From positions 186,001 to 250,000 of the forward strand of contig QPGO01000082.1 of NCBI GenBank assembly GCA_008632985.1: DNA of 64,000 nt, in the 5' to 3' direction. The notes under the pieces are model-generated. The model was not told the origin of the DNA and did no database searches. It worked only from the letters and a program-made list of their open reading frames with translations. The DNA is from Psammoneis japonica (Eukaryota). Positions 3,825 to 40,900 of the stretch are shown here, piece by piece. Numbering within the stretch: the first letter of the stretch is position 1; each line of letters starts with the position of its first letter. The translations under genes and the position numbers were made by a program.

Positions 3825-6800
3825 TCGGCAGCAACGGTCAGAAAAGAAGCGTGAGGGGGGCACATGAGCGAGAAAGAACAGCCGGAGATGCAAGAATTCT
3901 TTGACCAAACATCAAGGGTTGATCTGTGGATTTCTTTGCCCCTGGGTTCATCATGTCCTCACCTCTTTCCATTGTTCGAAACAGAGCTCACAAAAAAATC
4001 TCACATTGTTGCTGTGTGAGACAGAGCTCGAAACTTTTCTTGAGCTTGTTGCCAGCCGTCGCACTGGCATCATGCTTGCTGCTTTCTCTCCAGCAGCCAT
4101 GCCAGGTGCCAACAAATTGCACCAGAAACAGGAGCAGGAAAGCCACAGCCAGGTGCACAAGAACAGCTCGGGTGCTCATTTTTGGCAGGGAAACAAAAAT
4201 GGCAGTGTTGCCAGAGCTCACAGCTTGTGCCCCGCAAAACCTCATCTCGGCCAGCACAGTTTCAGAAAAAAAAGAGGCATGTGCAGCTGAGGCACAATGT
4301 GACCCACACAACAGCCAGAGAGATTGTGAGCAAACACTTGGGAACATGTGCAGTTGGTGAGTGACAAAGGTCAGTCAGTCGAGTTTTTTGCACCCTGCAC
4401 ATGTTGAGCTCTCTTCTTTCCATTCTGAGCAGTGCTTGCAATCTTGGGGCACAAGCCATGACCGGCAGGCAGCCATTTCAGTTGTGGTGACTCTGCTGTT
4501 TTTGTCATGCCACAAAAGCTTTCTCCTCTGACATTGCTTTTTTCTCTGTTGTGTGCTCCTCCTCCCCCCTCTCTCTTGCTCAATCTCTCTCTCAAATGAA
4601 TGACACACAGCTGTTGAGGGCAGCTGCTCATCACATGTTGTTGATGATGAAGAGTCCTGTGTAAACTGTTGACACAGTCATGCAGGTGCAACAACTTGGG
4701 CCCATTTCTCTGCAGGCAATGACAGGCAAGAAGGAGTGCCACTGTCAGAAAAACCAGAGCTTCTTGTTGGTTGTCTTTTGCAATGTCAGCTGCGCATCCA
4801 CACAAGAAAAAACATGCTGTTGCACCACATGAGCAAGAAAACAAATGCCAGCCAGAGAGATGCAAAAATTTTGAGCTGTTTGCCATGCACAGAGCAAAGT
4901 TTTAGCAAATGACAAAACAAGGGTTGATCTGCAGATTTCATTGCCAATGGTGGTTGCATGTGCTGCAACTTTCCCCACTCTGAATGTGTGGTGTGTGGGA
5001 GATGACCCCACACACTGCCAGCCTGCAATTTCTGTCATGACTCTGCTTGTTTTGCTGCTGTGCTGTTGGTGCTCTCCCTTCTTCATGCCTCCTCCTGTTT
5101 CCAAGAATTTTTTCCCTGTCTCTTTCACTTGAATGAACAAAAAAAGTTGGAGCAGCTGATTCTCTTGCACTCTGTCATGCACTCTGTCATGCATGACAAA
5201 CAAGAAACAGAAAGTGGCCAAGACAGGGCTGCTTGATCAGATGTTTGTCCAAACCATTCAGCAATGGCAAGGCACAACAACATTTTGGCTTTGAAATCAG
5301 AAGCAAGGCTTTTGGCTGTGGCGGTGCTTCATCAGTGGCTGGCTGCTGTTGTTGACATGGTTGAGGCTGTTGTGTTAAAAAAGATCTGGGTGAGAGGGGC
5401 AGGAGAGTTGAGTTGATCAGCTGGTGCTGGGACAGGCAAGTCAGTTTGACTGGCACTCAACTCAATCTGGTTCGCTCTCTCTTTCTCTTGAACAAACAAG
5501 TGAGGATGGGATTCAGCCAAATGGGGTTCTTGAGTTGTTCTGGTGGCATTGCCAAAGATGAGGTTTTGCCCCTTTTGAAAGAGTGGTTGCAGTTTGCTGG
5601 GCTTGCAGGATTGAGCTTGAAGTCAAAGGTGGAGCAGTCTCATTTTTGCTTTTGCGTTGGTGATTTTGAAGCAATGATTTTGAAGCAAAAGAGCATGCCC
5701 ACAATTGGGCTGGAGAGCACTCCAGTCAGGTGAGCTGAGTGGGGTGGAATGTGCATGCATGAGTTCATTTCTTTTTCACAGAGGGTGGTGTGAAGGTGGG
5801 AGCCTTGGATCAAGATTGTGAGGTCCACAAAGTTAACTTGGCAGCTTCGAGTGCTTGTGATCCAGGTGATGTCAAAGTTGTTGAGGAGCCTGGAGGCAAA
5901 TCTTTCTCAGGTGGTGATGTCTGTGATGTGCCAGATGCCAAAGATGTTGTCAACAAGTTGTTTGCAGCAAAATGGCATGGAGCAAAGCACCTCCAGGAGC
6001 ATGTCTTCATGGAGCATGCAGCACAAGGCAGCACACGGAGGGGAGGGTGGTGCACCCATGGTGGCTCCATTGCACTGGTGTCAGGTGGTGTCCCCAAACA
6101 CATGAGTGCATCATTTTCCACCACAAATTAGAGGACTTTGATGAGGGCACATCCGTTGGTGTGTGTTGCAGTCATTTTTGTGACATTGAAGACAGGAGGC
6201 AATCAATTGAGGCGCTTTTTTGGCAGGCATGTTGGAGCAGCAGGCCTCGGCATCAGACATGAAGTGGAGGCAGTTCGGTGGAAACTCCATTCAGACGAGT
6301 GCTTGTTTTGGGTCCAGGGAGCTCTTGAAGTGTGATCATTGGCAGCACGCAACCTTCTGAAGCTTGTCATCCACTCAGATGCCCAAGCCACAGAGTGAGC
6401 TGCCACTGGTGGAAACAGCTGGTCAAGATCGCAGTGGCCGGGGCTTGTGCACACAGGGAACGGGTCTTCATCAGTTTCAAAACAATGTTTGAGGTGCTTG
6501 CATTCCATTGAAGTGATGCTGTCTTTGTGTGTCTTGAGCCAGTCACTGAGGAGGTTTTTCATTTTGGCATTCTTGGATTCTGGCTTCAAATTTGCTCAGG
6601 GATTGGCGCATGTTGGTGTTGTTGAAATGGCCATGGAATGCCATTTTGACACATTTTCAATGACGGCGGGTCCCAGGTTCTTGTTGCATTGGGCTGTCAT
6701 GAAGTTCTCTTGTTTGTGGTGGAGGCAAGTGAGGGCGTGACATTGGTGGGGCAGGAGGTTGGTTCTGCCTTGGCATTTCACAAGAAGTTTGGTGACTTGT

Positions 6801-7890
6801 GTCTTTAAAAAGGCAGTGTGACAGAATTTGATGATGATGACGTTGAGTTTCCAAGGGGGGGTCCAATCGGACCAGAGGTGCATCCTGGGGTTGTGATCTT
6901 CATCATCATCATTGATTGGTGCATTGGCAAAATGTTCACATTTGTCGAGGTCTTGTTTGAATTGCCCAAGTGGTGTTTGTCATTGGATCTTGGAGGACTT
7001 GCCATTGTTGGTGAAGCATGATGTTAGAACAAATTTTTCAGACCAAGACCAAGCAATGATTGGAGGTTTTTTGGTGGTCGTTTTGTTGCAGTTCAGGCAT
7101 GTTTTGCAGGCAGTGGACACAGACATTGTGTCGGAGTTTGCAAGATGGATGGGCACTGAACCCGCACATGCAATGGACTCAGCATTCGATTGCCTCTGAG
7201 GCTTGCTCTGATTGGTGCTGGAGTGCTGTTGTTTTTTTATGGCTGTTTCAATTTGGGGTGTGATGGCAATGTTTTTGTTGGCACCACACTGGTGGTGTCA
7301 TTGTTGGCATCGTTGGCTGTTTGCAGTGTGTGGGGGGACAAAAAAGTGGGGGCTGCTGGGGGGAGCGTGAAGGACATGGCATCAGGCATGCTTGCAAATG
7401 TCAGCAAGCAGTTGAGAGTGAGGGTGTGTGCAGGCAGCAAGCAACAATTTGCCCACTGGTGCCTTGCAAAGCCGTTTGACTTTTGTGCTGAAAAAGCAAG
7501 ATCACACACATTGCTTTCAGGCAGGGATCATTTTGACACCCCTTTCACACCATGTGGCTTGTTGGTCTTCAGCCAGCCCAATGGCCTGTTGGGGGGATTT
7601 TGGCTCTTCACAATCCACCTGCTGTTTAACTCACCAGTGTTCTCTTTTGCTTCACACCTCATTTTTGGTCCTGTGGAGATCACACTCCATGTGTTTCCCT
7701 TTTGCAACAATCTGCAGTCAAGCTTGTTTGGCGGCGTGATCACAGGACACCAAAAGGAGGTGGTTGTCACAAGGGCATGCCTGGCCAGCAAAGTTTTCAA
7801 GTTGGCTCATGGGGCCCTTGGCATTGGTTGCTTCGGAGTTCACGTTCTTTGACGCCTGCACAGTCGGTTCATTGTTGCGGCACTGGAAGC
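3825..7890. mobile_element. TpA-depleted island A (degenerate transposon region)
   Basis: By eye only about 10 TA dinucleotides in about 4 kb; CG also scarce; TG/CA strongly enriched; ORFs in all frames almost lack Tyr. Confidence 0.85.
5400..6900 (-). pseudogene. Penelope-like retroelement reverse transcriptase relic
   Basis: Minus-strand fragments in the expected order: QCNKNLGPAVIE (DKNLG motif), EDPFPVC, SDAEACCSN, FGDTT*HQCNGATMGAPPSPPCAALCC, CCKQLVDNIFGIW (catalytic IDD), VNFVDLTI, TTLCEKEMNSCMHIPPHSAH (NLYLYxPxxSxHP-type motif). Broken by frameshifts and stops. Confidence 0.8.
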
Positions 7891-8691
7891 AACTGTACCG
7901 CAGTGCAAATCTTTGTGATCTCTGGCAATGAATACAACGCTCTCTCCCATCAGCGCGACAGTGTTGGCTTAGGCACACACGAAAATTGTCTAATAGAGAA
8001 GTAACTAAGAGAGAGAAATATTCAATGAAAAACTCATTTTGATGGATTGTGTAGTCTATGATGATGTGCTATTGTGCTCAAAACGCAACATCACAATGTG
8101 ATGGTGTGTGCTTCTATGATTTTGTGTATGATGTGTGGGTTTCGTGATCCAGTGCGCGGTGACCAAGACCCAAAAACTTGGAAAGAAAGCTTGGATCGAT
8201 AACCTAGAAGAGGACGTCCGCGAGTAAGTACAACTCGTGTGGTGGTCGGTGAATTCAGTAAACCACACATAGACAGACTGTTCCTTCTCGTTGCTATTCA
8301 GTGCTGGTAGGTGCAGCAATGTTGCTGTCGGTGATGTGAGAGATATGGCGTAGTGGTTGTATGATGATGGATGACGCACGTAGTTGAGTAGAGTGACGCC
8401 GATGAAGTATGGTGTGCGGTGATATTGTTGTCGTTGGTGGTGGTGATATGAATATGGAGTAGTGCTTGGATGATAATAATGGATGACGCACGTCGCTGAG
8501 TGGTGTGACGCCTGCTACAAATCCTGAAGCGCGTCAAAAGAAGTACGTTGAGATAGACCGTCCCCTGCCTTCAACGTCGAAGCTAATATCTGGCTTTGTA
8601 TGGCAATCGCTCAATGTGCGCCCCTGGCGGAGTGATAACGTGTTGACCCGATAATCCCTGTTGTTTCCCGTGAAATGAACTATCATCAGGC

Positions 8692-13355: not shown

Positions 13356-13764
13356 TCTTGTTGATTCCAGAGCCAGGTAACAAGGGTTCTAGCACTATTC
13401 CACTGATCACGAGGACACAACGGTTTAATTGGTTGCAGATTCGCAGCAGGATATGCCTAGAGGGCTAGGGGCAGAGCTATTACCACTACTTTGGTGGTGG
13501 CTGGGCACTATGGGCACTGGGCACCGAAAATCTGGAATCTGAAAATTGAAAATGACTACTGTACAGTAAACTGCGTGCGAGTCGTCGTCGCGAGACAGTC
13601 TCGCGCACACATCAGATGCGACAGCGAGACGTCCATCTCCTGTGTGTTCCACTGTTTTATCATTTGTCGACTCTGTGGCACTCTAGCTGCTGGCAGTAGA
13701 GAGCTCTAATGCTGCTCTCTACTCTGGGGCCCTATGTAGCTACTGGTAGCTCCACTGTCTAGCA

Positions 13765-15900
13765 GCAGAGAGCACAAAAAGTGTTCACTGGCAAAAGGCA
13801 GAGAGACGACGGGATCCCTGCAAAACACCAACACCCATGGCCGGCTCCTTCTTTCAAGAGAGATGTTCTGGACTGGCAACTTTTCATCATGTTTCACTGT
13901 GCTCAAAGAACCTGCAACAAAGACAAGGCTATGTGCTGGTAAAAAGCAAGTCTCACAAAGGCACAACAACAGCCAACTTGTTCTTTGACTTCAGCCGCAC
14001 TCTTCATGTGTTGACAGGCACATCTCTCTTCATCAGAAGGTGCTCATTTCATGCTTTTCCTTTCACAAAAATGTTCTGACATGATTCCCCATGCACACTC
14101 TTGCGGTGAAGCATTTCCTCCTCAAGCTGACTCCAGGCTTCAAATGGAACGCACTCAACTTCTTCTCAAGTCCCCTCCTTCCTTGATTTCACAATCCTGC
14201 CCTTTTCCAAGCAACAAAGTCATTTGTGACATTGTTGAGAACAAACCCTTTTGCACCCAACAATTTTTCATCATGATTTGCTGCACTGCAGTTTTGTGCT
14301 GGGCTTGCAACGGCAATGTGGGAGTGCTGGTCAGCAACTTCAAATCACGTGGTGGAGCTGCCCCCTCTGCAACACCATTGTGACCTGTTTTTTCTTCTGC
14401 AACCTTTGCCTCTTCATTTTCTTTTGAGCACTCAACCCCAGCCAGTGCTTTGACCCAAAGAGCAGCACAACTGTGCCAGCTGCTGCTGCAGTCTTCATGT
14501 GAGGTTGTCTGTTCCCTGCTCCTCCAATGCCATGCCTTGTGATCTTCTGTTGTTTTGTCCTCCTCTTCTCCCTCATCTCTCTTGTCCTCCTCTTCATCTT
14601 CAGTGCTTCCACCTCATGCAGCCACAAAAGAACCACTTGGCTTGACTGTCACTTCCGTCTGTGTCAAAAGCACCACAATGTCCCCACTCATTGTGTTTTT
14701 GATGATGGTGCTTTGTGCCAAGAGTGTCGTCTGTCTGTCTCAACAACCCCGCAAATTCTGAAACTTGTCAGGTGCCTCAATGACTCACGAGTTGAGGGTT
14801 TCTGATTTCTGTGAAAAACTCTTGTTTGTGCACCCCAGTTGCAAGAGATCCAGCACATGTTCTGTGTGTTTGCTCACAATTTGTCTGCAAACTGTCAACT
14901 GTCATCTGGAGCCCTTGGGCACAGCAAATTTGCTCCCCCCCTCTGTCCTGTCTGTCTGTTTTTCTTTTCGGCTTCTGCCAAGCCATGTGACATCCACAAG
15001 TTCTGCAAATTGTCTCAACCAGCTGTGTCAGCAGAAGAGTGACTTTGTCTTGTTTGACTGGACAGCTCCAGATGAAGAATGTCATTGACGCCACTGTGCA
15101 TCACTCAAATCTCTGATCAACCCCAGCAACTTTGATGACAGATCAAAGTCTGTGATTAAAGTGCACAAGTTGGACTCTGGACATCCAGAAGATGTCCACA
15201 CTTTCTTCAAGTCATCTGACATCCAGGGCAGCTTTCTCTTGTGCAGTGTGAAGACCATGACCAAGACACCTTCAAAGCAGTGCACAAAGAGTTTCTGCCA
15301 AAAAATGTGCCCGGCCCAAGACATTGCAGTGGAGGCCAAAGACTGGTTGCAACCACTCAAAAATGCACAAGGATCAGCAAGGCTTGCAAGCCAACTCCAA
15401 CTGGAGTTCCCAAATCAGCAATGACTTGTGTCCTGTCCATGAAGCAGCCCATCCAAATGGACAAGTGCAACATCATCACCCACCATGAGCAAGAAAACTG
15501 TCAGCAGCAGCATTAAAAAAGGCTTCAATGCACTCAAACCTCATCCAACAGGAGCCAAGACAACCAAACTTGAAGCCAGTTGCAACAACATCATCCCAGC
15601 TGTTGCTGCAACCTTTGCATCAGAAGCAGCCAACAACAAGTCAATGAAAGTGGCTGCAACGTGTCTCATGGATCAAGAATTCTGGTTTCTGTGAAGAGTT
15701 CTTGTTTGTGCATTCTAATTGCAAGGCATCTAGCACATGCTCTGTGTGTTTCCTGTGAGGACTTTTGAGAAAGCGGCTCTAAAGCTCCTCTCTGTTTTAG
15801 CTCACAATTCGTCAATGAACTCACTCTGCTGACAACTGCTTTGCCAACTGTCATCTGGTGCCATTGGGCATTGTGGCTCTTTCCGGTCAACGAATTCAAA
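13765..15900. mobile_element. TpA-depleted island B; degenerate element with imperfect direct repeats (about 14800-14925 and 15680-15875) and a possible retroelement gag-like relic (about 15100-15450, +)
   Basis: No TA seen between about 13945 and 15510. Repeat copies read ttctgtgaa..cttgtttgtgca..ttgcaag..agcacatg..ctgtgtgttt..ctcacaatt..actgtcatctgg. The gag resemblance (KVHKLDSGHPEDV) is weak. Confidence 0.7.
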
Positions 15901-25524: not shown

Positions 25525-27029
25525 AATGAATCCTTTTAGAACTGCGCTTGCCAGTAAAACAGCCTTGACGCTCTCGATCACAACCGCCACGCCGCTCAAC
25601 GGTCGGAATGTCGGGGCGGGATCGATGCGCGGAATGCGCGAAAGTTCACAGTCAAAGTCATGCGCAGTCGCACGGTGACGACACGTCCAAAAGTTCAAGA
25701 CAATGACACGACGGCAAACAATGCAGGAAGCAATGCCTTACGTTTGCGCAAGACAGGGTAGATCAACACGGGGATTCCTTGAGCTGTTCAATTGAAAAAG
25801 GTGGAGCAAGAGGAGGAATTACTTTAGCTCTGCTTTTGGTGTTGAAGGAACAACTTCAGGAGCCGCTCTCTCATTGTGCAAAGAGTCGAGCACGTGCTCT
25901 TGCTTGTTCTCTTCTGTGTGTCAAAGCATGCAGCCAGCAGAGGCCATCACAGCAGGAACAGAAAGCAGGTGTGTCCAGACACGGTGTGACAATCCCAAGG
26001 AGGACGAGGTGACAACACAAAATGTTGGTGGGTTGAAGCAAGAACAAGTGGGGAGGGGGGGGGGCAGCCTGGCCGCATCATGACGGGGCCACCAAGAGCA
26101 CTCTGTGAGGGGGTCTTCTTGCCCCCTCTCAGCCCAAATTCAGAACAAGACAAGTGGCAACAAACAAGAAACAGGATTGCCAATGTTCCACGTCAGCAGC
26201 AATGACAACAACAACAAGACATTTTTTTGTGCCCCACCCCCTTGAGTTGTGTGTGAGCGAGGAATCCCACGCAATGCTCCCAAACAGCCACGAGCTCCCC
26301 ACCCAGGCAGAAAGGCAAGACAGACAAGAACAAAAACAAAGAAACAGACCAGCAACACATGAATGGAGTGTGGTTGTTGTCACAAAACCTTCAGTGGGTG
26401 GACAGACTGCCAGGTGAATCCACACAATTTGAGTCAAAATGCAGAAAAGCAGTGCAGCAGGCACGTTCCAGGTGCAGCAAAATTGTTGTGCAATTTTGGA
26501 CATTGCCAAAATCAGCCAGGTTTAAAACCAGTCAAAAGGGAGTCCTGTCATCATCAGGCTTCCCACTCCTTCCTCCCCCTTTTGATCTCCCACTTCAGCA
26601 GATGCGCGCCCAACATGCACTGCAGCAGAGGCGTGTGGGTCTTGAGTTAAAACACATTGGTTTGTCCTGAACCATTGATTCATCTCATCTGTTGCCACAT
26701 GGAAGTTCTCATCTGGGACTTCTTGTTTTCTCTTGGCCATCATGTCATTCAGTCTTCCAGGCTTGTCCCAGCAGTGCCACACAGCCACCGCTTCATTGTC
26801 GCGTCATGTGGCACATGGTGCTCATCATTGCTGGGCTTGTTCATGATCAGCAACATCATGGTCAACAACTGCACTAAAGAACACAATGTTGACAGGACAA
26901 ATTGTGACTGGTTGAACCTTGTGGCTCATGGCATCATGGCATCTTCCAGGCAACAGGGATCTTTCACCCACGTGCATCAGAGTTCTTGTCTGACATCACA
27001 AACAGGAAATGCTCCTGTCATGCTTGAAG

Positions 27030-28340
27030 TTGACAGTCCATGACAGCTTGTTTGAACATTTGAAACTTCTTGCCCTGCGGTGGCTCAGTCATTGAGTCTC
27101 TCCAAGCCTGTCATTGGTTGGACAATGCCGCACTCTGAGATTGCCCTTCTCAATCTGATCATCGGCAAAGAAAGGCCAAACATTGAGTGCTCTGGACTGC
27201 CTTCTGGCACTCCTGTGCCCATCTGTTTCCAACAGGCATGGTGCTTTTGTTGTTCCAGCAAAGGATGTTCTTGTCAATCAGAATTTCCTTGATGCCCCAT
27301 GAGCACTTTCATTTGCAGTGTCATGGTCATCGCTTGCGTCATTGACTCCTGAAAGCTCAGCCTCTGTGCTGCTTTGTGTGTTGAGCTTCTGGCATTTTGA
27401 TGCAGCCTGTGCTGCTCCATTGCCCATGGTCACAATTCCTCCTGTGTGGCTCTTCAAGTCAAGACGTGTGCCATCAATGATGCATCCACATGCCACTTGA
27501 TTGCTCAAAGGTCCTTTGCACTCAATGCAGTGAATTTGTTTTGTGCCCAGCTCAGGCACTTGGTGCAATCAACTGGGCTTCCCTGCTCTTGTTGGCTGGC
27601 TCTTTGACTCATGTGCACAGTGCTGCAACAGTGGGCACACATCCACACAGCCTCTCTTGGACATGAATTGTCCCTTGGACACCCATGCATGGAATTTCTT
27701 TGCTTTGTTGGCTGGAAATCTTGTGCTGCCGGTGTCAAACAGGTTCTCCCCAGCTGGCATTGTGGCTGCATCTGCACTCTTGATCTCTTCCATGAACTGT
27801 CAAACCATGTTGTGAACAGTGTCAGCCATGTTGACCTTTGCCTTCCCCTTGTGGCTGAAGTCCAGGGTCATGCCAAGGCAGTCTCATGCTTCTTCCCTTG
27901 TGTCATGACTTCACCATGGCTTTCACACATCTTGTTTGGCCACCTTAAAAAATTTTGGCATTTGCTTTTGGGTTCATGTGGCTTGCCAACAGGTTGTTCA
28001 CATGGAAATGTGGGGTGTCCTGCTTGCTGTCAACTGTTCAATTGGCAATGCATGGGTCACAGCCACGGGTTGAACTTGAACCCAATTTTCTCCAAGTCCT
28101 TGCAAAACTGCTTGCATCACAGCCATGTGCTCAGCTCTGATGACTTGGATGCAGAGGACTCTCTTCCCCTCTCCATTGTGACCACATGTGGTCCACACAG
28201 GTTGGAATCAATGCTCACTGGCATGATGACCAACACTCCTGCAATCTTCATCATGATCTGGTCTTCACCCTCCTGAGGCTTTGGAGTCAACATCTGCACA
28301 AATGCAGTTGGCACATCTGCACAAACGCAGCTGGCACAGT
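27030..28340 (-). pseudogene. Ty1/Copia RT-RNase H relic (diatom CoDi-like)
   Basis: ADVPTAFVQ...MKIAGVLV...LCGPHVV; GKRVLCIQVIRA; LEKIGFKFNP; TMPAGENLF; DLKSHTGG..TMGNGA..SKCQKLNTQSSTEAEL; RALNVWPFF..DQIEKGNLRVRHCPT; PQGKKF. Confidence 0.9.
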
Positions 28341-28399
28341 GGGTCCAATGACATGTGGACATGGCATCCTCAACTTGTCCCTGGAGATCCTTGCATCAT

Positions 28400-29400
28400 C
28401 CAACCACTGTTGTTGCAGCTGAGGTTGCAAATGTGGGTGCATGTCAGCCAAAAAGCCCCCCTGGCATCTTCAGATGTGTGCTGCAGCAGCTTGTCTGACT
28501 TGGTTTGTTGATGAAAGTTTTCAGCTGTGATGTGCATTTTCTGCACTTGCTTGCAGTGTGATCCACTGGTGATGAAAATTAAAAGCCACAAATCACTGCC
28601 CACAGAAAGAGCACAAATGTTGTTCCTCCTGAAAAGGCCACCATCTCAGATCAGGCCATCCTCCTCTGCAAACTCCTCATGATGTGAGTGAGAGAATGTT
28701 GGCATTGTTTTCCAGTGAGAGCAAACATGATGGAAGCTTGATGGAGGTGGGAAAAAAGAGCATCAAAAGAAGAAGATCAAAAGTTGAGGCCATGTTGGGA
28801 CAGTTCATCAACAAGCTGGCACACCAAGTCTGTCACATCCTTGACACAAGTCTTTTCCATTGTCATGTTTGCCATTCTGGCACCCATGCTTGCTGGGGGC
28901 ATTTGATGCTGAGCCACTGCAGTGGGTCATGTGTCTGTCAACCAATGTGCAGCCCAGGCACTCAAAGAGCAAGCTGTGGCATTGGAAATGCTCCCATGGT
29001 GGTGGCATGTTGTGGAGGCATTCATGGAGTGCAAGCATTGGTGCACAAAGGCAAGCAGCATCAACCATGAAATTGTTGCAGTGGCCCACACAGACTTGCC
29101 AGCAAGTTTTGGACTTGATGTTGATTTGGACACTTCTCCCCTTGCATGTGTCATGTCTGCTTGGCAGGTGACTGTGTCAAAGCAAAATGAATTGCAGGAC
29201 AACTGCTTGAGCTTGTGGAGGAAGCTCCAGTTTTAGGAATTTGTCAAGGCAGACTGTTTTGCAGTGGAAGCCTTGCAGAGGGTGGTGGCATGGGTGGTTT
29301 GTTTGGGATGAGAGCAAAGCTGATGATGATGGGCTGCAGCTTGCAGGTCCTTGGCAGAGGTCTTGTGCTGGAGCTTTCACTGCTGGACAGGTTCAAATGC
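28400..29400 (-). pseudogene. Highly degenerate coding relic, possibly a piggyBac-like transposase
   Basis: Fragments CKGRSVQINIKSK, HNMPPP and GVPAC loosely recall piggyBac-type transposases; very eroded. Confidence 0.25.
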
Positions 29401-30169
29401 ATGTGTCACATGGGTTGTTTTTGAGAAGGGCACTGTGGTGAGACCAGATCTTGACATCCTTCATGGTGCCCCAAGCACTCGGTCAAAATTCTCATTGGGA
29501 CAACTGCAACCCCCAAGAAGGATGTTCTCAAATGTTGTGTGAACATGTGGTGTTGTCAAATGCAAAATCCATTTTGAAGCTTGGATTTCTGCTGGCATTT
29601 GTGGAGGCAATCACAAACCTGTTAGAAGACAGGGTGGCTGTTCATGACATCAGAGATGAAGATGACAATGAACAAGTCCCTCCAGGGGAGGTAATGCATG
29701 ATTTGCTGCAACACAGTTGCAATGGCACCAGGTGGGGGGATGGATTTTGTCCAGTGGAAGTGGGCCATGCATGTTGCTGTTGTTCTGAGCATTTTGCTGT
29801 GGGGCATTGTTGTTGTCATGTTTGCAACAGACATGTCATGTGGCTGTTGCAAGCTGCAGCAGCAGCAGCTGCCAAACTTTTTTCTGATGCACTCATGTCA
29901 GCATGCAATGTTCAGCAATGAGGACAATCATTTTTTTGTGCATTTTTCCATTTGTCAAGGTTGGCATTCACAAAAGAACACAAAAGAAATGCAACCTCCA
30001 GAATTTGCCACAGATTTGACCAGCACCAAAAGTCATGCTGGAAACATGCCAATGTCAAAAAGCACTTTGCCTGGAGATGGAACACGCCTGCTGGCACTTC
30101 TGCTGATGAACTTGAAGCTGGGGTTAAGAACTCATCAGGTGTCTCCTGCAATGAAAACAACATTGTGCA

Positions 30170-31140
30170 ACCTTCTTGTGCAATGAGGGTGAAGTTGGAA
30201 ACTTTCCAGGGATCAAGATTGAGAAGCTTTCTGATGGAAAATTTTTGCTGTCACAACAATGTTTGATCAATGAGGTTTTGTGCATCACGCAAATGGAAGA
30301 CTGCAAAGCAACTCTGACACCTGCTGCTCCCAAGGCAGCCATTCTTGGTGCAAAAACTGATGGACTTCTGTTTGGTGATGAACTGTGGGAATGTCAACAA
30401 ACAGCAGGAGTGGCGCCAACATGCAACTCCTTGTGGGCAACAGGAGCTGGCCAGACATTGCCTCTGTGATGGTGTGTCAAGCAGCAAGGTTCTCCTGTGC
30501 ACCTCAAGCTTCTTGAGCACTTGCTGTCAAGTGCATTTGGCAATGCCTTGGGGCTGCTTTGGATGAGAGTCTCATTTTGAAGCCAGCTGACAACAACTGA
30601 GTGTGGATTGGCTTGTGAGCTGAGCACTTTTTGGCATCAAAAATTCCCAAGACTTTGGCTTCTGTTGTGTCACACACAGGGTGTCTTTCTGCTGTGCAGG
30701 ATGTCTGATTTTCTGGGTCTCCAAGCTTCAATCTCTTGTCGCCATCTCTGCCATGGAAGAAGCCAAACATGTTGCATTGTCTTGGGCCACACAATGAATG
30801 AATTCCTGTGCTGAATGAAATCTTCAAGGAGATGAGAGTGCACACATGTTCAACATGCCTGAACTTCTTGACAAGATCATGATGCATTCCAGTCAAGGCA
30901 TTTGAACTTGCCAGTCAAGGCTCTGAAGATGTGAGTGTTGCTGTTCACAATGGCCTCCACTCCATCTGCTCCTGTGTGGTGTGGTGATGACTCCAAATGA
31001 AAGTGGAAAGCCTGGAAATTGACATTCAACCCATTGTCACTGCCGAGCAACCAGCTGATCAATTTGCCCTGAACTGTTCCAGATCGCTGGGAAGGCTCTC
31101 ATGGGCTGGCAATTTCTCTCTTCATTGGTTGAGAGGGAGA
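30170..31140 (+). pseudogene. Second Ty1/Copia RT-RNase H relic with polypurine tract
   Basis: EGEVGNFPGIKIEK..F.LSQ..LINEVL..MEDCK..TPA; LILKPAD; SHTGC..CAGCLIFWVSKLQS..AISAMEEAKHVAL; TAEQPADQF; LMGW at 31098-31109, then a purine tract GAGAGGGAGA at 31131-31140. Confidence 0.85.
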
Positions 31141-31613
31141 GTCACGATTTACTCACGTTTGACTTTGCTGTCAAAACATGACTCAAAATGTCTCACTGAA
31201 CTCCACAATTTGAACCGTCTCTGATCTGAAACTCACTTTTCCATTGATCTCGATCACTTTTGAATCTCCACAACGACGCCATTTTCAGAATCACATCATT
31301 GTCAACATTCGTTTTATTCTTCTTCGCTGTTGCTTTTAGACAACCTCCTGTCGAGGACTGCTCTTTCCAGCCCAAGCCGGAGTGCACACTCAAGCAGGCT
31401 ACCAAGACGCCACAACTGGCAAGTGATGTTGGATGGAGGAGGTGCCGTGAGAATTGAATGCATTGTGATGCGGTGTGAAGAGGCGCATGTCCGGGTTGTT
31501 AGGTTGACTTTGGGAGGAACATGATAGCGTGAGTGAAAGTGCTAAAGAGAGACGAATGAATACAATCTACTAGTTTATGATATTGGTGAGTAACTACATC
31601 AGCTCCAAGCTAT

Positions 31614-32867
31614 TTATAACCAACCAAAGAGGAAATCCACAATCCTCGAAATTAGGCCACCGTCATCGTCATCGTCAACTGCTTCACCATCACCAAACCG
31701 CCAAACGTCATTGTCGACATTTTTAAACTGAGTCAGGTCGATGAAATTAAAGGTCTCCCGGTCACCACCAAACGTATAAATGACACTTGAACCCTCGGGT
31801 TCCGTGACAACCAAGGAATCAAAGTCGTATTTGACATCTGCCGGACCATGCGCGTTCCATGGCGAACCGCTCAATTGAACCCATTCTTCGCCGTCCACAC
31901 TCTCCCAAATATCCGTTGGGTTGGCTGGAGAAGTGTCGGTAATGTCTTCATTCAGACCAAAGCCTCCATAACACACGATACGGCTCCTGATTGTATTGCA
32001 GGCATGTCCCGGCCTAGGTGACCACCCAGCACTTGCTGTCACGAGTTCCCAAGTTTGGCCGTCGTCAGTCTTCCAAACGTCATTGTAATACGGAGGAGGG
32101 GACCCCACAAAACCACTCTCACCACCCAAGATATAGAGGGAGCCATCCATAACCGTAACGGACGCTCCAGCCCGTGCGGCCCAACCAGCGCTCGGCGTGA
32201 CCTCGTCCCAATCCACGCCATTGGAAGATTTCCAAACATCATTGAAATACCGACGATCCAGTCCGCCCAGCGAGGCATCGTTGCCGGTAGAACCAGCCAT
32301 GACATAGATTTCGTCGTTGAAAACAATGGCACTGAAACCCGCTCGTCCTTCCCATCCCGGATTGTTGGTAAGCTCTTGCCAGGTCATACCACCATCGGTA
32401 GACTCCCACACATCACTGAAGAATTCAGAATTGTCCTCTAGGGGCGGTATACCACCATCCAAGGGATTAAACCCCGGGCCCAACTCAATTTCATAGTTTT
32501 GTCCTCCAAGCACAAAGATGGAATCTCCTTTTGTTACCGCTTGAAAATAGGCCCTTGCAGGAAAATCCGCCGTCTCGACAATTTCCTTCCACGTCTTGCC
32601 CATGTCTTCGCTAATCCAAACATCTCCACGGATAATGCTGTCACCAGGAATGAATGGAATACCGGGCGGCTTGGGAGTCCTTCCTCCAATAATGACTAAG
32701 GTATCGTCGGGTAACTGTACAGCCTGGAGACCGGCTCGCCGTTCCCATTCGGTGTTGCTGTTAAGTTCAGTCCATTTAAAGTCATCGAGGTCTGCTTGGG
32801 CGGCGGTGATACTACCAAGGTGAATAGTACACCACAAGAATGCAGCAATTGAGAGCTTCATTTTCAT
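31614..32867 (-). CDS. Secreted kelch-like beta-propeller protein
   Basis: Signal peptide MKMKLSIAAFLW...; about six repeats of W.xR.G....(I/L)Y(V/I)xGG...NDVW.S.DG..W; no intron. Confidence 0.85.
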   Translation of the reverse strand: MKMKLSIAAFLWCTIHLGSITAAQADLDDFKWTELNSNTEWERRAGLQAVQLPDDTLVIIGGRTPKPPGIPFIPGDSIIRGDVWISEDMGKTWKEIVETADFPARAYFQAVTKGDSIFVLGGQNYEIELGPGFNPLDGGIPPLEDNSEFFSDVWESTDGGMTWQELTNNPGWEGRAGFSAIVFNDEIYVMAGSTGNDASLGGLDRRYFNDVWKSSNGVDWDEVTPSAGWAARAGASVTVMDGSLYILGGESGFVGSPPPYYNDVWKTDDGQTWELVTASAGWSPRPGHACNTIRSRIVCYGGFGLNEDITDTSPANPTDIWESVDGEEWVQLSGSPWNAHGPADVKYDFDSLVVTEPEGSSVIYTFGGDRETFNFIDLTQFKNVDNDVWRFGDGEAVDDDDDGGLISRIVDFLFGWL

Positions 32868-33383
32868 CGTGGGCGGGAGGGGGATAGACAACACTACCTG
32901 CTGTCGCCTGTTCGCTGCTTTGTGCTTGTGGTGCTCCTGCACGTACCGTACTGTACGAACATTGCAAAATCGAAAAATTGTTTTTCATCATATGCGTTGA
33001 ATGCATCGAACTATATTCTTTAATAGTTTTGTATATCGCCGAGATAGCAAATCTTTGTATAAACATATTAAGCTGTTTGTACTGATAGGAACTTTGCTAA
33101 ATTAATGAAGTTATTTTAATAATGAAATCCGTTGAGGTATTCGGAGTATCGCTCCTCAGATGCATACACGGGACTCGCTGACTCTATGCACTTATTAAGA
33201 CGCATGAATATTAGGATAGGTTCAACGAAGTTCCTACGTACAGGCTGTACTGTACCGGCGGCATCGATCGATCGCCGAACAAAAAAAAAAGGAAAAGATT
33301 TTGAAAAAAAGCGACGACATCTCACTTGCACTTCTTACCTCTACTACAGTGCTATTTTCTAGCTAGAGAGCCGATCCCTTACC

Positions 33384-33794
33384 ATGAAGGTCACCATTTT
33401 CATCTCCGTCCTGTTCTCTGTGTTTGTCTTGGGCACAAAGGCTAGCAGTCTCCGCAAGGCGAAGGACCTGCTCCGTGAAGAGGAGGGGTCAGACCCCCGT
33501 CGTCTTGGTTTCGTGATCGACTTTATTCTGTCTCTTGTGGCGAAAAGGCTGGACGAAGTTGGCACCACGAACACGTTTGATTGCCCCCCTTGTACTAGTG
33601 AATGCGAACTGGACCCTGAGCCCTTTGGCGACAAAGGCTGCATGCGGGGTGTGATCGTTGAACCACTTTTCCCTTTCAGTCTCATTTGGGGCGAAGGTGA
33701 CACGTTTTGCTACCCAGTGAGTCTCGTGAATGCGATGCTTGATAACGACCCCGGTACTCTTGGCTGCGCCGGCACTAACGCCACGCGGAGTTAA
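33384..33794 (+). CDS. Small secreted Cys-containing hypothetical protein
   Basis: Signal peptide, SLRK...RRL propeptide-like motif typical of diatom secreted proteins, Cys-containing mature part. Confidence 0.6.
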   Translation: MKVTIFISVLFSVFVLGTKASSLRKAKDLLREEEGSDPRRLGFVIDFILSLVAKRLDEVGTTNTFDCPPCTSECELDPEPFGDKGCMRGVIVEPLFPFSLIWGEGDTFCYPVSLVNAMLDNDPGTLGCAGTNATRS

Positions 33795-35174
33795 GTCAAG
33801 TGACGGTCAAGAAGAAATGAGAAGACCAAGAACAAGATCAGTAGGAGTTTTTGAGACATGTGGTGTCTACAGTCTACAGTACATGATGTTACCAAGCAAG
33901 GATAAATGTGCAGTATTAGTTTATTCGTTGTTAATATGACACGCATTGTTCTTCAGCTTCTTATCATACATCAATGTTCAGGTCTTATTGGTGCCTGTGC
34001 ATGCAGCACATGTTGTCGCTCTTTGGCACTCGGTGCCTTCAACCGTGCAATCGAGAGCAACCCTGCATTCCTAAGTTTACCGCATTTCTTGCATCTAAAA
34101 GTACGTTAGGAACCCCATGTGGAGACCAGTGGTCTAGGTCTACCGGCACTTGTATGGGGAAGTTCATCCAAGCTGTCCCTCTTTTTTCCTCGAGCTTTTC
34201 CACAGCCCGACGGAGGTTGGCCGACAAATTCTTTCGCTCATGGTCCATTGTTTGGAGCATTGTCCATTCTGATGGTGTGTGGTTCTCATCACTGCTGTTG
34301 CGGCATGAGCGCAAGGTTTGCTGTTTGTTGTTTGTTTGCCAGCAGTGCTGTGGGGCAACTTGTGAGTGATGTTTGCTTCTCCTTCAGATGGAGTTCCTTC
34401 CCAGCAAATGATGCCCCCCGTGAGGACAACAACGACGACCAGCGCATCGCACACAATGTGGCACCCATCACTCTCATCGCACAATCTTTGAACAGCATTG
34501 AGAAGATGAGAATGAGATGTCAAGGAATTGGAACATTGTGGAGCATGTGGTGCTCTTGTTGTTGTTGGTTTGACGGTTGCCAGTGCAACTCAACCTCCTC
34601 GTGCAAGGAAAAATTTTTGCACTGCCAACCTTGACAACGATGCGGCCGATGGGAGACAGTCACCAAGGAACTGCTGTCCAAGGGAGTTTGCCCTTGACAG
34701 ATTGAGAAAATTCCTGGAGTGTGCAGGACAAACTTGATGGCTGGAAGAATGTTTGCACAACAATGTGCCACAACTTGCTTGTGTGCAAGCAACACAGTGT
34801 GCGCTTTCATGGCACCTGGCCAGCAGGAAGTTTCAGATGACTGACTCTCAGTGTTTGGCATGTCATTGAGTGCTCAGGCAACAATGCCAGCACTGTGCTG
34901 AGGCAAGGACACAAGTCCTGAGGTGAGGATGACCAATTGCTGAGCCTTGTGCCAGAGCACTGAGCTGGTCGAGGATGAAACTTTGGCACAACCAAGCTTT
35001 CCACTGCAGTGCAGCATGCAGCCTTGGCCACTGCAGAACATGGTCATAGAGTGGCATGCTCTGTGTGCATGTTTGTGTTGTTTGTCAAGCAATTTGAATT
35101 TGTGCATTTCCATGTGTGTGTGAAGAATGTGGAGCTGCAATGCCAGTGGAAAAAGGTGCCACTCGATTGCAGCA

Positions 35175-36060
35175 CCAATTCCTGCCATCCACCATCCAGC
35201 AACTGCCACTCAGCATCCACCATCCACCATCCAGCATTGCCCCACCATCCAGCATCTGCTGTCTGCCAGGTTTTTTTCACCATCTGTCCAGCATGTGCCT
35301 GCTGCCATCCACCATTCAGTGCATGCCATCCACCATTCACCACCCAGCATCTGCCGCCGAGCATCTGCCACCCACTGCCCACATCCTGCCATCCACCACC
35401 ATCCACCAACCAGCACCAGCACCCAGCATCAACCACCCACCATCCAGCTTCCAGCATCCACCATCAAGCATCTCCAGCATCCAGCATCTGCCATCAAGGA
35501 TCTTCCATCCAACATCCAACATCTGCCATCCACCATCCATTGTCCACCATTTGCCAGCCACCATCCACCACCCACCATCTGCCATTTAGCACCCAGCACT
35601 CTCCCTTCAGCATCCATCATGGACCATCCAGCACCCAGCATCTGCCGTCACCCGCAACACCCAGCACCCAACATCCACCAAGGTGAGACATGAGAGAAAT
35701 GATGTGTTGCACCATTTTTGCATGACAGGTGTGCACTGAAAAATGAGAAAACTGTTTTGTGCACTTCAGTCTCAAGTGACAGTGTGACATCATCACCACA
35801 AAAAAACACCACCACATTGATGTCATCCATGCCGCAGCCACACAACAACACATGTCAAAAACAAATTGGAGATCTCTGTTGAGACCACATTGGCTGATGC
35901 CAGATGGTGGATTTTGGATGGTGGACAGTGGATGGCTGGTGGTGGGTGGTGCAGGATGGGCTGCTGGCTTGTGGGTGGTGGATGGCAGATGGTGGATGGT
36001 GGATGCTGGGTGCTGGGCAGCACATGGTGGACAGCAGATGGTGGATGCTGGTTGGGGGGA
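35175..36060. repeat. Low-complexity (CCAT/CCAC/CCAG/GCAT)n tract 35175-35680 and inverted (ATGG/GTGG/CTGG)n tract 35895-36060
   Basis: Directly visible; the two tracts are reverse-complement in composition. Confidence 0.85.
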
Positions 36061-37229
36061 GTCTTTTCACCTGTTGCTGCACCAAAATGACTGTTGAGTT
36101 GACAAAACAAAAATTGGCAACAAAGTTGCTCCCAACACAAAATGTGGAACCAGGAGTGAGCAACAAAACAATGGCAGAGCAGTTGAGCAGCAAAGGCAGG
36201 AAAAATTGTCACAGCAAAGCAGGAGCAGGCTGGAAGGTTGCTCAGGATGACAGCATGTCCAGAGCACACCAACATCAACAGCAGTTGCACATCAACAGAA
36301 TTTTTGCCAAATGTGCTGAGCAATGTCAAGTCACTCTCTTACAGCTCTTTGTTTGCAACTCCAATTAGCAGCAGATTGGGCAGCCATGCAATGATGTGAG
36401 ATCTGCCAGGTTCAGCATGTCTGGCAAATGAAAAGCTTTCACATCATTCATGTGCTTTGTGCAAACTTTCTCATTGGCCAGCATCATGTTTGCTTGTGCC
36501 GTTGTAAAGTTCAAAATGAAAATGATGTCAAAATGTTTGAGATTGTGTCAATGGAAAAACAGACAAGATTTGACAGATCATCAAGGCTGAGATTTTGGTG
36601 TGGTGCACTCATTGATGTGCTCAACACATTTGGGCAAAGCACTCAGAGTTCAGAGTCAATGCTCTCTTTTCTGGCATGTGTCATTTGCATTGTTGTAAAC
36701 TCCTCATGCACAGCATTTGCTTGTCAGAGTGCCAGCAGCTTTTTCCAACTGCCAGTCTGCTGCAGACAGAAAAAACTGCAAAAAAGACTTTTGCAGACAA
36801 AGGCAGGTGACACAGAGGCTGTTGTTGTTGTTGGAGCTTTCACATCACAGGTGTTGCAAGGCACCTGGACATGTTGAAGGGAAGAAACTCCAACTCCTGA
36901 TGCAATTTGCTGAGTGACTCTTTGTGAGAAGAGTTTCACCACAATCAACCCCTCACCTTTGACTTTCATCTCACTCTTTGGAGTTGGTTGTTTGGTTTGC
37001 AATTTGGCACACAGGTGCCTGTAATTTTGCAAGTTTGCAGCTCAAATTGATGACTTTTGGTGACCCATTGCCAAAAAAGATTGCCAAGACAAGTGCATCA
37101 AGTGGCACAGGAAGCCCAGTGGGGTTTCCTTTAGGGAAGATTGACTTGCCAGCTCAACATTCACTCCAAAGAGTTGCTGGCACTGTGCTCAGTGCTTGCA
37201 AACATCGGCCCATGTGCAGACAACCAAGC

Positions 37230-37755
37230 ACTGAATGCCTGCACATTGCACAGCAGAGGAGGAGGTGGAACAAGCAGCAGAGGCTGAAGCTGAAGCTTTG
37301 GCAGCAGGAAAGGTGACAAGAGTCACAGGTCCTGCACTGAGAAATGACTTTCAGCCTGAAATGAAATTTCATCCTTTGTCACTGAACAGCAATGCTCACA
37401 ATGATGCTGTGCACAAAGACATCAAGAAGAAGATCATCTGTTGCATGCAAAAGGGGTGTGAACAAGGCATGCACATCATGGGGTCTTTAGAAGACATGAA
37501 ATGGTGCAAGGATCATGGCTCTGAAAAAAAAACACCTTGAGAGTGTCAATGGGGGCAGCACCTGAGGTGACAGAAGTGGGATGCCAGGATGTGCTGCAGA
37601 AGAAATGGCTCAAAGACAAGGAGCTGGAACATGAGCACAAAGCAGAGCCAAGTGACTGCTGCAACAAAGCAAAGCAGTTTGAAGAGGACAACAAGACAAC
37701 TGCATTTGCCAAGATGGCAGACAACTGCTGCACCAAGCAAATCAAGTGCAGGGCA
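37230..37755 (+). pseudogene. Copia gag-like relic
   Basis: KIICCMQKGCEQGMHIMGSLED and ELEHEHKAEPSDCCNKAKQFEEDNKTTAFAKMADNCCTK resemble the N-terminal region of diatom Copia polyproteins with Tyr replaced by Cys/His. Confidence 0.5.
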
Positions 37756-37909
37756 GTTCCACCCTTTGCACTTGACTCAATGAGGGGTCAACGTCTGTTC
37801 TGCCACAGTTGTCCCACTGGCATCAGGGACAATCTGACCAAGTTGCTGAAACCAATCCAATCTCTTGCACTCATCTCAATGAGAGGTCAACATCTGTTCC
37901 ATGCACTTG

Positions 37910-40900
37910 CCAGCACAAACACCTGAGAATGATTGGGATTGTTTCTGTGCGCATCAATGCACGAAAACAAAAAGCAAGCACATTCTCTGGCGTGAGCACC
38001 ACTCTGGACAAGAGTTTGCACACACGGCAAGTGTGTCTCTCGCTGGTGGGTGTGAAAAGAAGACATCAATGTCAGTGACATCTGTGGCATCAATTGCAAA
38101 TGCTTCTGCCGCTTGTCACTTGCGCAAGTCTCGCGCAGTTTTTCCAGCACAGTGCCACACGCAAAAGAGCAGAAACAAACAACAGGCGCAGCCAGGCGAA
38201 CCAAGCAATGACATGCATGACGATGCTTCAAAAGTTGCAAAAGCAAGTGATGGCTGGCATTCATCAACTGCATTGCTTGCTGTGATTCTCCCACTCTCTG
38301 CTGCAGTGCTGGTGTCAGCAGCTGGGCTTCAGGCCCCAATGACAGAGAATCCAAAGCACAGTGAGACAAGCAGCGATGATCGAGAAATCAAAACAATGCC
38401 GAGAGAGAAAGCATCTTTCTTGCAGATGGCAATCAACTTGCCAAAAATGCAGAGATGTCCACAATTTGCAGCAGAGAGGGAGATCACTTGGTGTGAGTGC
38501 CGTGCACTCTGGTTGACAAATGTGACTGTGCTTTGAATGATGGCTTTTGTCTTGGGCCGGCATGCCGTGAGGTGCGTCTTCAGTTTCTGCAACTTGCTGA
38601 CACTCGTCACCACAAAGTGTTCACCCATGACGACAACCCTGATTGATGAGGTGCAAGTCGTTCAGCGGTCTTTCTCTGCAGATCCAAATGCACAGAAAGA
38701 ATAAAAAAATCAGACACCACTCTGTTCAGTGCCGTTCATCGACATCATTGCGCAATGTGGCTTTTCTTGTCGCTGGCAATGACGTGGTGACCATTTCGCA
38801 GTGAATGAGGCACAACGCATGACATCTCCCCTCCACGTGTTGTCTTCATCCAATCTGACATCATTGTCGGTGAAAACACAATTGACAGAGTGTGAGACAA
38901 ATGGCAACTGAAATGACAAAACAATGCCAAGAGTGAAATGGTGCATTGCTTGCCAATGATGCAAACACAGCATTCCACAATGCACTGGTGGCTGACAGAT
39001 AGAGAGATCATGCTGTTCAATGCCACACGTTCTCACCAGCCACCACAGACCAGCAACTCTGGCAGAAGAGGATGTCTCTCTGCATCAAGCCACCAAAAGG
39101 AATTGTTGCCATGCCCACAGTCCATTGTGTTGCCACATTGCCTGCACACAACACTGATCTTCAAAACCAAAGAGTCCAAATGCCAACACACAGTGAACAG
39201 CATGCTGAGACTCAACCACAGTTGTTTTGCCTTGTCTGTCAACAAGGTGTGACACATGACATCTCCCATTGGCTTGATCTGAAGAAAAGAATAAGAGCAC
39301 AAGAGAACAATGTGAGCAAAGAATGGAACACTGGAGTGACAACAAAAGCTCAAAAGGGCACACATTCAATGCCCACCAGATGCAATGTGATCATTTAGAC
39401 GACAATCCACAAAACAGAAAATGGATGCCATGAGAACTGGGTTGTCACTTCTTGTGTCATTTCAGAGTCTTGCAAATGTGGCAGCTTGACCACTGCAGCA
39501 CTGCTTCAGCAAATCAGATTGATGGAGGAACACAGCAAATTGTCACAGCCAGCACAAGTGCACCAGATTGGCAACCCCAAGGCTGAAGGAGGACAGGCAA
39601 CACACATCTGATTGATGCTTCTGCTGTTCGCAGAAATTTTTACAAAACAATCCAAATCCTGCCTTCCTCCCTTGTGCTTCCTTGGCTTGCTTGCTTCCCC
39701 ACAAGCAAAAAACTGGTCTGTCCTCTGCCTTTTGGCATCTCTGTAAAAGTCAATTTTGTTTCCAAAATCAATGGGTTTTTCAACAGGCAATGCTTCTGGC
39801 ATCTTCTGACATTGTCAACTGACGTGCTTTTGTGCCAGTGTTTGTCAGTTTCATGGTTCTGAACGCCATTGCCACTGTTCAGATGCTTCTGCTGTTGGCA
39901 GAAATTTTTGTGAAACAAACAAAATCCTGCCTTCCTCCCTTGTGCTTCCTTGGCTTGCTCGCTTCCCCACAAGCAAAAAACCAGTCTGTCCTCTGCCTTT
40001 TGGCATCTCTGCAAAAGTTGATTTTGTTTCCAAAATCAATGGGTTTTTCACCATGCAATGCTCTTGCATCTTCTGACATTGTCGGTGACATGCTCTTGTG
40101 CCCATGTTCACCAGTTTCACACCAGCTCTGAATGCCATTGCCACTGTTGCAAGAAGGGCCTTTTTTTGCTCCAAGAGGACAGACCGGTCATCATCAGAAT
40201 TCTGTGTGGCAATGCACTGAGAAATTTACAAAGTTTTTTTTTTGCCTCCGACCTCAATTGCTTGGCCATTGTCTCTCACTGCGGCAGCATGGCAAGTTCA
40301 CAATGCACACTCTTGTCAAACAATGTGGGCCCACAAGCTCTCATTCATTGTTGTTTTGCCTTGTTGCTCACATTTTGTGTGCATGCATTTGTCTCGAATT
40401 GGAAATGGACAACTTAAAAAACGTTCATCAATGAGGATGATCAATGACACAAAATCTCTGTAAATTCTCAAATGACTGTTTTTTCTTAGAAAATGGTGAT
40501 GTGCTGCTTTTGCCCCCCCCCAATTGTGCCATGATGCAACACTCTTTTATCCGCTGTTTTCACAAAGTGCTCTGTTGACCTTCTGACTGATGCCAGCAGA
40601 GGCAGTTTGCACGTCAAACAATGGGGGCCACTCTTAAAGTGATTTGCAAAGTTTGCTCTTGCAAGAGGACAGACCAGTTGGAAGAGAACAGACTGGTTTT
40701 TTGCTTGCACCACAGCACCAAGTTTTCTGTGTTCTTCTGCCACCCTGGACCACAGCCACGTGCACATGAAATAAAAAGCACCAACGCCAAATCAAGATGG
40801 AGAGCAATGATGCGTGACAGATGCGCACAAGGAAAAAAAGATCATTTGCACGCACATGCCTGCAGCACATTCTCAAACATGGGTGGCGCAACTTTTAAGG

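Follow-up and report, generated by a model that had tools for sequence, protein, structure and literature searches.

Composition of the window and its TpA-depleted islands

The stretch analyzed here, hereafter the window, comprises 64,000 nucleotides (64 kb) of Psammoneis japonica contig QPGO01000082.1 (GenBank assembly GCA_008632985.1, positions 186,001 to 250,000). It contains nuclear DNA of an intron-poor eukaryote, in which normally composed genic DNA adjoins four islands that have lost nearly all of their TpA and most of their CpG dinucleotides. The few TpA sites left in these islands are strongly biased in their flanking bases, and the best explanation of the data is a flank-dependent preference of the mutator that erases TpA. 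The normally composed DNA contains long open reading frames (ORFs) for a RelA/SpoT homologue (RSH), a bZIP factor, a proteasomal AAA ATPase, a DnaJ-type chaperone, a tyrosyl-DNA phosphodiesterase, a PfkB kinase fusion, and a Kelch protein.

We delimited the islands with a two-state hidden Markov model of TA density, which assigned 25,584 bases (25.6 kb) to the four domains listed in Table 1. TA density was 1.8–4.7 per kb in the islands compared to 39–48 per kb in the flanking genic background, and CG density was 7.7–22.5 per kb compared to 52–59 per kb, while G+C content (0.47–0.49) was about equal in the two. Only 89 TpA sites remain in the islands, against approximately 1020 expected at background density. 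Among the 16 dinucleotides, the largest falls from background to island were those of TA (0.09-fold) and CG (0.30-fold), and the largest rises those of CA (1.68-fold) and TG (1.54-fold). All other shifts were mild and stayed within about 20%, among them GA 0.78-fold, TC 0.89-fold, GC 1.21-fold, and TT 1.06-fold; AA was not depleted (1.09-fold). In counts per kb, the blocks in which TA and CG are nearly gone have gained TG and CA by an equal amount. The TpA loss takes the form of changes that are almost exclusively TpA → TpG or CpA, and it is confined to discrete domains that adjoin normally evolving DNA.

Table 1. Islands, repeat copies, and other features of the window. One-sided sites carry either a 5' T or a 3' A, and TTAA sites carry both.
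Feature	Position	Strand	Remarks
Island 1	3732–7895	none	TA and CG erased; 10 TA left: 4 TTAA, 5 one-sided, 1 neither
Island 2	13761–15715	none	TA and CG erased; 4 TA left: 2 TTAA, 1 one-sided, 1 neither
Island 3	25826–31314	none	TA and CG erased; 10 TA left: 5 TTAA, 5 one-sided, 0 neither
Island 4	34154–48129	none	mosaic of repeat families; 65 TA left
Youngest-looking part of island 4	44154–47153	none	TA 8.7 per kb; CG 49 per kb (background 56); 9 of 26 TA unprotected
Repeat copy c1 (third copy)	37912–38720	+	at 38702, TA in the window, TG in a contig of the public run, CA in c2 and c3
Repeat copy c2 (older)	42472–43815	+	4 TA (42596, 42702, 43653, 43807), all shared with c3
Repeat copy c3 (younger)	44905–46528	+	9 further TA where c2 has TG, CA, or once CC
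RelA/SpoT homologue, full length	20415–22961	+	848 aa; domains HD, RelA_SpoT, TGS, ACT
Tandem of two 61-base units	50073–50195	+	units 98% alike; 21 TA; normal background, outside the mutated domain

The two losses can be separated. Where island 4 looks youngest, TA has become sparse but CG is largely intact, which indicates that TpA erasure is faster than CpG decay and precedes it. CpG decay within the islands is thus a distinct, slower process.

None of the 229 island ORFs of at least 70 amino acids reached the Pfam cut-off, and no transposon or viral protein was recognizable in the islands of the window; a set of 15 longer ORFs likewise yielded none. The only four Pfam matches (Peptidase_S28, IZUMO, DUF5818, and Cytochrom_C_asm) were all sub-threshold and were judged to be chance.

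Flanking bases of the remaining TpA sites

A preliminary description of this DNA had claimed that the TA sites left in the islands are overwhelmingly flanked by a 5' T or a 3' A. All 15 of the sites that it gave as examples proved to be TpA where it placed them, and the claim held when every site was counted: 70 of the 89 island TA carry a 5' T or a 3' A compared to 616 of 1534 background TA (odds ratio 5.5; Fisher p = 8e-13). Within the range that it covered (positions 4660–39400), the fraction was 33 of 36. The count of all 16 NTAN contexts that it had proposed likewise differed between islands and background (chi-square 116.8, p = 8e-18), and the island sites departed from proportionality to island base composition (chi-square 85.6).

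There were large differences in the extent to which individual contexts had been lost. Relative to background, density was highest for TTAA (0.46), followed by TTAG/CTAA (0.24) and GTAA/TTAC (0.13). It was far lower for ATAA/TTAT (0.063), CTAG (0.057), CTAC/GTAG (0.048), and ATAG/CTAT (0.047), and lowest for ATAC/GTAT (0.020), GTAC (0.014), and ATAT (0; no site in the islands, 129 in the background). The near absence of four contexts noted in the preliminary description was also borne out: islands and background contain 3 and 117 CTAC, 1 and 108 GTAC, 3 and 79 CTAG, and 3 and 117 GTAT sites, respectively.

The bias persisted under each change of reference. It remained when the background was limited to sequence outside long ORFs (p = 1e-9) and when 200 bp were removed from both ends of every island (67 of 84 sites, p = 8e-13). 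It also remained when expectations were built from the NT and AN dinucleotides of the islands (chi-square 47.4, p = 3e-5), from uniform re-creation of TA by transitions at island TG and CA (chi-square 86.7), or from uniform re-creation by transversions at TT, TC, AA, and GA (chi-square 108.8). An origin of the remaining TA by transversions within runs of T or A was rejected, since it predicts 1.1 TTAA sites where 22 were seen. Such an origin of TTAA is ruled out because the precursors TTTA and TAAA contain TA and are themselves rare.

Footprint and decay model

We then pooled the bases that lie 3' of the A on either strand, such that each TA contributes two half-sites. The fraction of A at half-site positions +1, +2, and +3 was 0.52, 0.53, and 0.45 in the islands compared to 0.22, 0.27, and 0.28 in the background, and the enrichment was gone at positions +4 to +6. 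A at +2 was still enriched when +1 was A, C, or G. The extent of the enrichment and the independence of the +2 effect from +1 together indicate a two-fold symmetric footprint of approximately 8 bp.

A simple model accounted for the context densities. When the logarithm of survival was taken as the sum of two half-site constants (Poisson fit, ten strand-collapsed classes, four parameters), the deviance was 4.87 with 6 degrees of freedom (df; p = 0.56), compared to 96.7 with 9 df for a model of uniform rate. The fitted decay constants for the base after TA rise in the order A (0.35), G (1.19), C (1.79), T (2.32). A logistic model of half-sites, fitted to some of the islands, classified sites in the others with areas under the curve of 0.85 and 0.80. 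A single protective flank approximately halves the hazard, and TTAA decays about five times more slowly than sites with neither a 5' T nor a 3' A (V-TA-B, where V is any base but T and B any base but A). That ATAA/TTAT is barely spared reflects this rule, since the unprotected flank still counts.

These results refine the context preference that had been suggested for the mutator. Its dependence on the flanks is supported, but a "VTAB-like" motif is too coarse a description: the effect is graded (A < G < C < T) and extends three bases out, protection on one side cuts the hazard only to about half, and ATAA/TTAT sites survive at a relative density of just 0.063. The same description had counted the AT-rich tandem in the right half of the window (Table 1) as largely spared by context. 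This does not hold, since the tandem lies in normal background outside any island; it was untargeted rather than spared and provides no evidence on context.

Survival versus re-creation of TpA sites

The bias could arise because protected sites are erased more slowly or because sites were remade after erasure. To order the parts of the islands by age, we used the extent of their CpG decay. TA density fell with age (8.7, 3.6, and 2.1 per kb in the young, middle, and old strata) and the mix of contexts differed significantly between strata (chi-square 10.8, p = 0.029), the numbers of TTAA, one-sided, and unprotected sites being 4, 13, and 9 in the young stratum, 7, 24, and 8 in the middle stratum, and 11, 11, and 2 in the old stratum. 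A proportional-hazards fit gave relative rates of 0.19, 0.55, and 1 for TTAA, one-sided, and unprotected sites, respectively (deviance 2.09, 4 df, p = 0.72).

The islands are repeated, with in-window paralogues that are 68–89% identical, and comparison of these copies gave a related result. Of 13 differences between in-window island copies that involve TA, 11 were TA versus TG or CA and two were complex. Copies c2 and c3 could be ranked by their CpG content: in their longest aligned segment, c3 has CG where c2 has TG or CA at 21 sites, and the reverse occurs at five. The more decayed copy, c2, has no TA of its own, whereas the less decayed c3 has nine, and the four sites that c2 shares with c3 all lie in protective contexts (TTAC, CTAAAA, TTAA, and CTAAAA).

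We also compared the window with contigs assembled from one public sequencing run, which possibly derives from the window's own source sample. Two further runs contained next to none of the sampled window words, leaving this run as the only informative one. Two island pieces differed from its contigs at 11 of 2596 and 9 of 2746 bases (approximately 0.4%), compared to 2 of 3185 (0.06%) in the genic piece between them. Among 40 listed differences (a further 165 lie outside the list), 18 were CG versus TG or CA, six were TA versus TG or CA, and 16 were of other kinds. Two TA sites of island 3, at 29692 and 30125, are TG in the run contigs. Among the listed differences up to position 41812, three of 33 island TA differ from the run, compared to approximately 0.35% of island bases (both denominators counted by hand). 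These differences hint at ongoing activity of the mutator but may be haplotype variation within one sample.

The age strata and the paralogues tip the balance toward survival, and differential erasure is the best reading of the data. On balance it is probable that the remaining island TA are mainly survivors of a TpA → TpG/CpA erasure whose hazard depends on the flanks. The NTAN counts would not have sufficed for this conclusion, because a model of re-creation fits them equally well. In that model, TA is erased regardless of context and later remade by C-to-T change at TpCpA (TCA to TTA, or TGA to TAA on the other strand), as by a TpC deaminase of APOBEC type, such that the new sites have a 5' T or a 3' A by construction. 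With four parameters and a fitted conversion of 4.5% of TCA sites, it gave a deviance of 15.5 on the 16 NTAN counts (12 df, p = 0.22), compared to 14.9 for survival. The direction of the mild dinucleotide shifts is in its favor, TC and GA being lower and TT and AA higher in islands (0.89-, 0.78-, 1.06-, and 1.09-fold against a baseline of coding DNA), as are three differences in which the window has TA in TAA context and the run has TG, although these are not polarizable. However, re-creation should add TA as CpG decays, whereas TA density drops and the context mix shifts; all four TA of the older copy are common to its paralogue, and the private sites are found in the less decayed copy. Among the differences listed against the public run, none of the six C-to-T or G-to-A changes outside CpG that do not form TA is in TpC context (hand tally). 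Re-creation also demands a second mutator, with its own three-base flank dependence, given that AA follows 30% of TAA sites compared to 8.5% of their TGA precursors. We regard it as distinctly unlikely to be the main source of the sites, though it may contribute part of the residue, particularly in the oldest islands. More improbable by far is that the pattern was inherited or selected, i.e., that TA was already mostly located in runs of T and A or was kept by function (e.g., in poly(A) signals). AA and TT are slightly richer in the islands, and by our own reading of the site list six of the 89 surviving TA fall within AATAAA or ATTAAA. Those six are the only matches to a poly(A) hexamer, however, and no coding function is visible in the islands, where no ORF reached the Pfam cut-off. 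The flanks of island pyrimidine-purine (YR) steps are flat, with 6.3 TTAA expected from TG and CA contexts compared to the 22 seen, and the mix of classes varies with island age.

A sub-variant of differential erasure concerns the strand on which protection acts. A strand-specific half-site reader, such as a single-strand deaminase, would be blocked by an A-run 3' of its target on the same strand only, such that one-sided sites would be edited via the other strand. With half-sites treated as additive, the fit is slightly better than with multiplicative effects (deviance 4.87 versus 7.37), and the one-sided hazard of 0.55 is near the additive prediction of 0.595. Bulk composition also appears to agree: YR-AA totals are conserved (40.1 versus 40.9 per kb), and the gain lies in CA-AA (+11.0 per kb) rather than in TG-AA (+1.7 per kb) in six of six island segments. 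In contrast, the polarized repeat pairs show four edits of one-sided TA on the strand without the 3' A and three on the strand with it. In the three allelic differences from the public run, the window has GTAA, TTAA, and ATAAAAA where the run has TG, and the G lies next to the 3' A each time; a strand-specific reader predicts approximately 84% of edits on the unprotected strand. CpG changes in the polarized pairs were unbiased in the same respect (17 versus 13; 3 versus 4 when flanked by AA), and the bulk asymmetry is confounded by CpG decay and ancestral composition. The CA-AA gain was rejected as proof of same-strand protection, given the disagreement of the polarized pairs for both TA (4 versus 3) and CG (17 versus 13). 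Since these cases disagree and the CAAA gain exceeds the combined loss of TA and CG in segment 44154–48129, the bulk asymmetry of products would be largely ancestral composition. We therefore consider strand-specific protection unlikely. The flank may instead influence the whole TpA step irrespective of strand, as both TG and CA are seen as products at one-sided sites in the few polarized cases. As a separate observation on composition, CAAA occurs at 20–28 per kb in the islands compared to 11–14 per kb in the background (approximately two-fold) and TGAA at background level, in six of six segments.

Besides the equal fit of the re-creation model, several points weigh against reading the remaining sites as survivors with flank-dependent hazards. 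The genic background is no more than an approximation of the ancestral state, and this proxy is imperfect, as segment 44154–48129 has gained more CAAA than its losses of TA and CG can supply. The additive and multiplicative flank models are not separable by their deviances. The strand assignment from bulk composition conflicts with that from the polarized pairs and the allelic differences. Finally, the analysis covers 89 sites in all, from one window.

Proposed mechanism and comparison with known systems

The contexts argue against two physical explanations of the flank effect. TTAA and ATAT both consist entirely of A:T pairs and have relative densities of 0.46 and 0, respectively; hence neither AT-richness nor melting is the determinant. 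Duplex melting or breathing is further disfavored by the finding that G:C flanks are not protective (GTAC, 1 versus 108 sites; CTAG, relative density 0.057). As neither melting nor AT-richness explains the pattern, readout of the sequence by a protein is the simplest account. We propose a process, restricted to domains, that would convert TpA to TpG or CpA. Its hazard at each site would be set by the flanks to three bases on each side, where 5' T's and 3' A's would slow it, and sites protected on one side would decay at about half of the full rate. TpA being palindromic, the chemical target may be either its A or its T.

The nearest parallel is from Bigelowiella natans. The main text of a recent preprint reports that integrated DNA of giant viruses and virophages undergoes TpA-restricted hypermutation in this species, measured de novo in mutation-accumulation lines at a rate approximately 1000-fold above that of the remaining genome, and proposes an ADAT2-like adenine deaminase as the agent (Mettrop et al., bioRxiv 10.64898/2026.01.13.699255). 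By analogy with that proposal, we infer that an enzyme reading the sequence gives rise to the footprint described here, a DNA adenine deaminase with TpA as its target being the most plausible candidate. As far as the account in the preprint goes, the two systems share changes confined to TpA that yield TpG or CpA, their occurrence in discrete domains beside normally evolving genes, and a long-term depletion of TpA with enrichment of CpA and TpG. They differ in that background TpA makes up 4.0% of dinucleotides here and 6.0% there, the genes here are intron-poor, and erasure here is near saturation (0.09-fold) and combined with CpG decay. Moreover, the targets in this window are repeat-rich, gene-free islands without a recognizable viral or transposon protein, unlike the integrated viral DNA described in the preprint. 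The preprint's main text gives a dinucleotide motif only, and the flank rule is thus an addition to it (bioRxiv 10.64898/2026.01.13.699255).

The islands also resemble, in part, three other kinds of mutational process. Repeat-induced point mutation (RIP) of Neurospora and other ascomycetes is a dinucleotide-specific transition hypermutation of repeats that turns CpA into TpA. Dinucleotide-specific transitions are likewise confined to repeated DNA here, with adjoining genes spared, but the direction is opposite, with TpA destroyed and CpA and TpG made. In place of the C-to-T change at CpA and the TpA excess of RIP, the islands have TpA depleted 11-fold and CpA enriched, and not all repeats are affected, as the tandem and inverted repeats at 50–51 kb are unmutated. 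Errors of DNA polymerase eta follow a WA motif (W, A or T), with A-to-G changes at both TA and AA. Changes of A to G at TA are common to both, but AA is not depleted in the islands (1.09-fold) and the W of the motif is not satisfied. This excludes general WA-type polymerase error, which the preliminary description had rightly held to be insufficient.

RNA adenine deaminases provide a further comparison. ADAR prefers neighbors in the order U > A > C > G on the 5' side and G > C ~ A > U on the 3' side, whereas ADAT/TadA enzymes target A34 after an invariant U33. Both have in common with the island process a preference for adenine after U or T; in the islands, however, the 5' T requirement is near absolute (AA is untouched) and the substrate is inherited DNA. 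Susceptibility to the 3' base follows T (2.32) > C (1.79) > G (1.19) > A (0.35) and hence differs from the 3' G preference of ADAR. An absolute 5' T would, by analogy, be consistent with the A34-after-U33 targeting of ADAT/TadA.

A broader interpretation sees in the symmetric footprint of approximately 8 bp the recognition preferences of a natural adenine-modifying enzyme specific for TpA. Such an enzyme would work on duplex DNA of the chromosomes, be directed to repeat or foreign chromatin, and be shared by distant algal lineages, i.e., a rhizarian and this red-plastid alga. We offer this tentatively, as a conceivable yet rather unlikely extension of the data. If it is true, the same flank rule is expected among the de novo mutations of Bigelowiella and could be used as an assay read-out that identifies the enzyme.

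TpA-erasing hypermutation has barely been described as a genome defense, with one 2026 preprint from a different supergroup. A full-text literature search found no publication that addresses the flanking bases in TpA hypermutation, nor any on erasure of TpA in diatoms; the sole "TpA" match, in PMC4504042, was the word "Tpase" and was discarded. The present data show the same dinucleotide chemistry in another lineage, at saturation and with CpG decay, and the quantified flank rule is not in print. This rule is a fingerprint that can be compared between lineages, and it is relevant to the question of shared or convergent machinery. It provides a criterion for choosing candidate enzymes and for designing oligonucleotide assays that set TTAA against GTAC or ATAT, on single- and double-stranded substrates, and it permits a correction when mutated repeats are dated by their residual TA. 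A more general lesson is that slow erasure and biased re-creation cannot be told apart by the spectra of surviving sites alone.

Repeat families and other features of the window

Contigs of the public run give an impression of how repetitive the islands are. The 20-kb stretch 28130–48129 was matched by 743 contigs, of which 591 were less than 99% alike, and in island 4 many other contigs matched at 90–99% likeness. The genic stretch 31465–34132, between two islands, had a flat depth of 59.7. Summed contig depth within island 4 reached 1890 at 35467–36133, 541–719 at 39469–40802, and 392 at 46806–47472, with many joints between contigs, compared to approximately 60 in unique sequence. These three segments probably belong to high-copy repeat families, with the proviso that contig depth does not equal copy number.

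The repeats at 50–51 kb have a normal composition. The two 61-base units of the tandem differ only once, by TA versus CA. Region 50073–51036 also holds a tandem of approximately 181 bases (88% alike) and inverted arms of 100 bases each (96% alike), all unmutated and located in normal, TA-rich DNA. It follows that local repetition by itself does not trigger the mutator.

Among the genes, the RSH protein was 63–65% identical to algal and 52–57% identical to bacterial proteins in a homology search. Its closest matches were labeled Rhodomonas lens (a cryptophyte) and Ditylum (a diatom), both within the 63–65% range, and the gene by itself thus does not assign the lineage. The nearest named sequences came from transcriptomes of marine algae and from diatoms, and none of the proteins retrieved was identical. 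Judging from its sequence, the predicted protein is consistent with a plastid-related (p)ppGpp enzyme.

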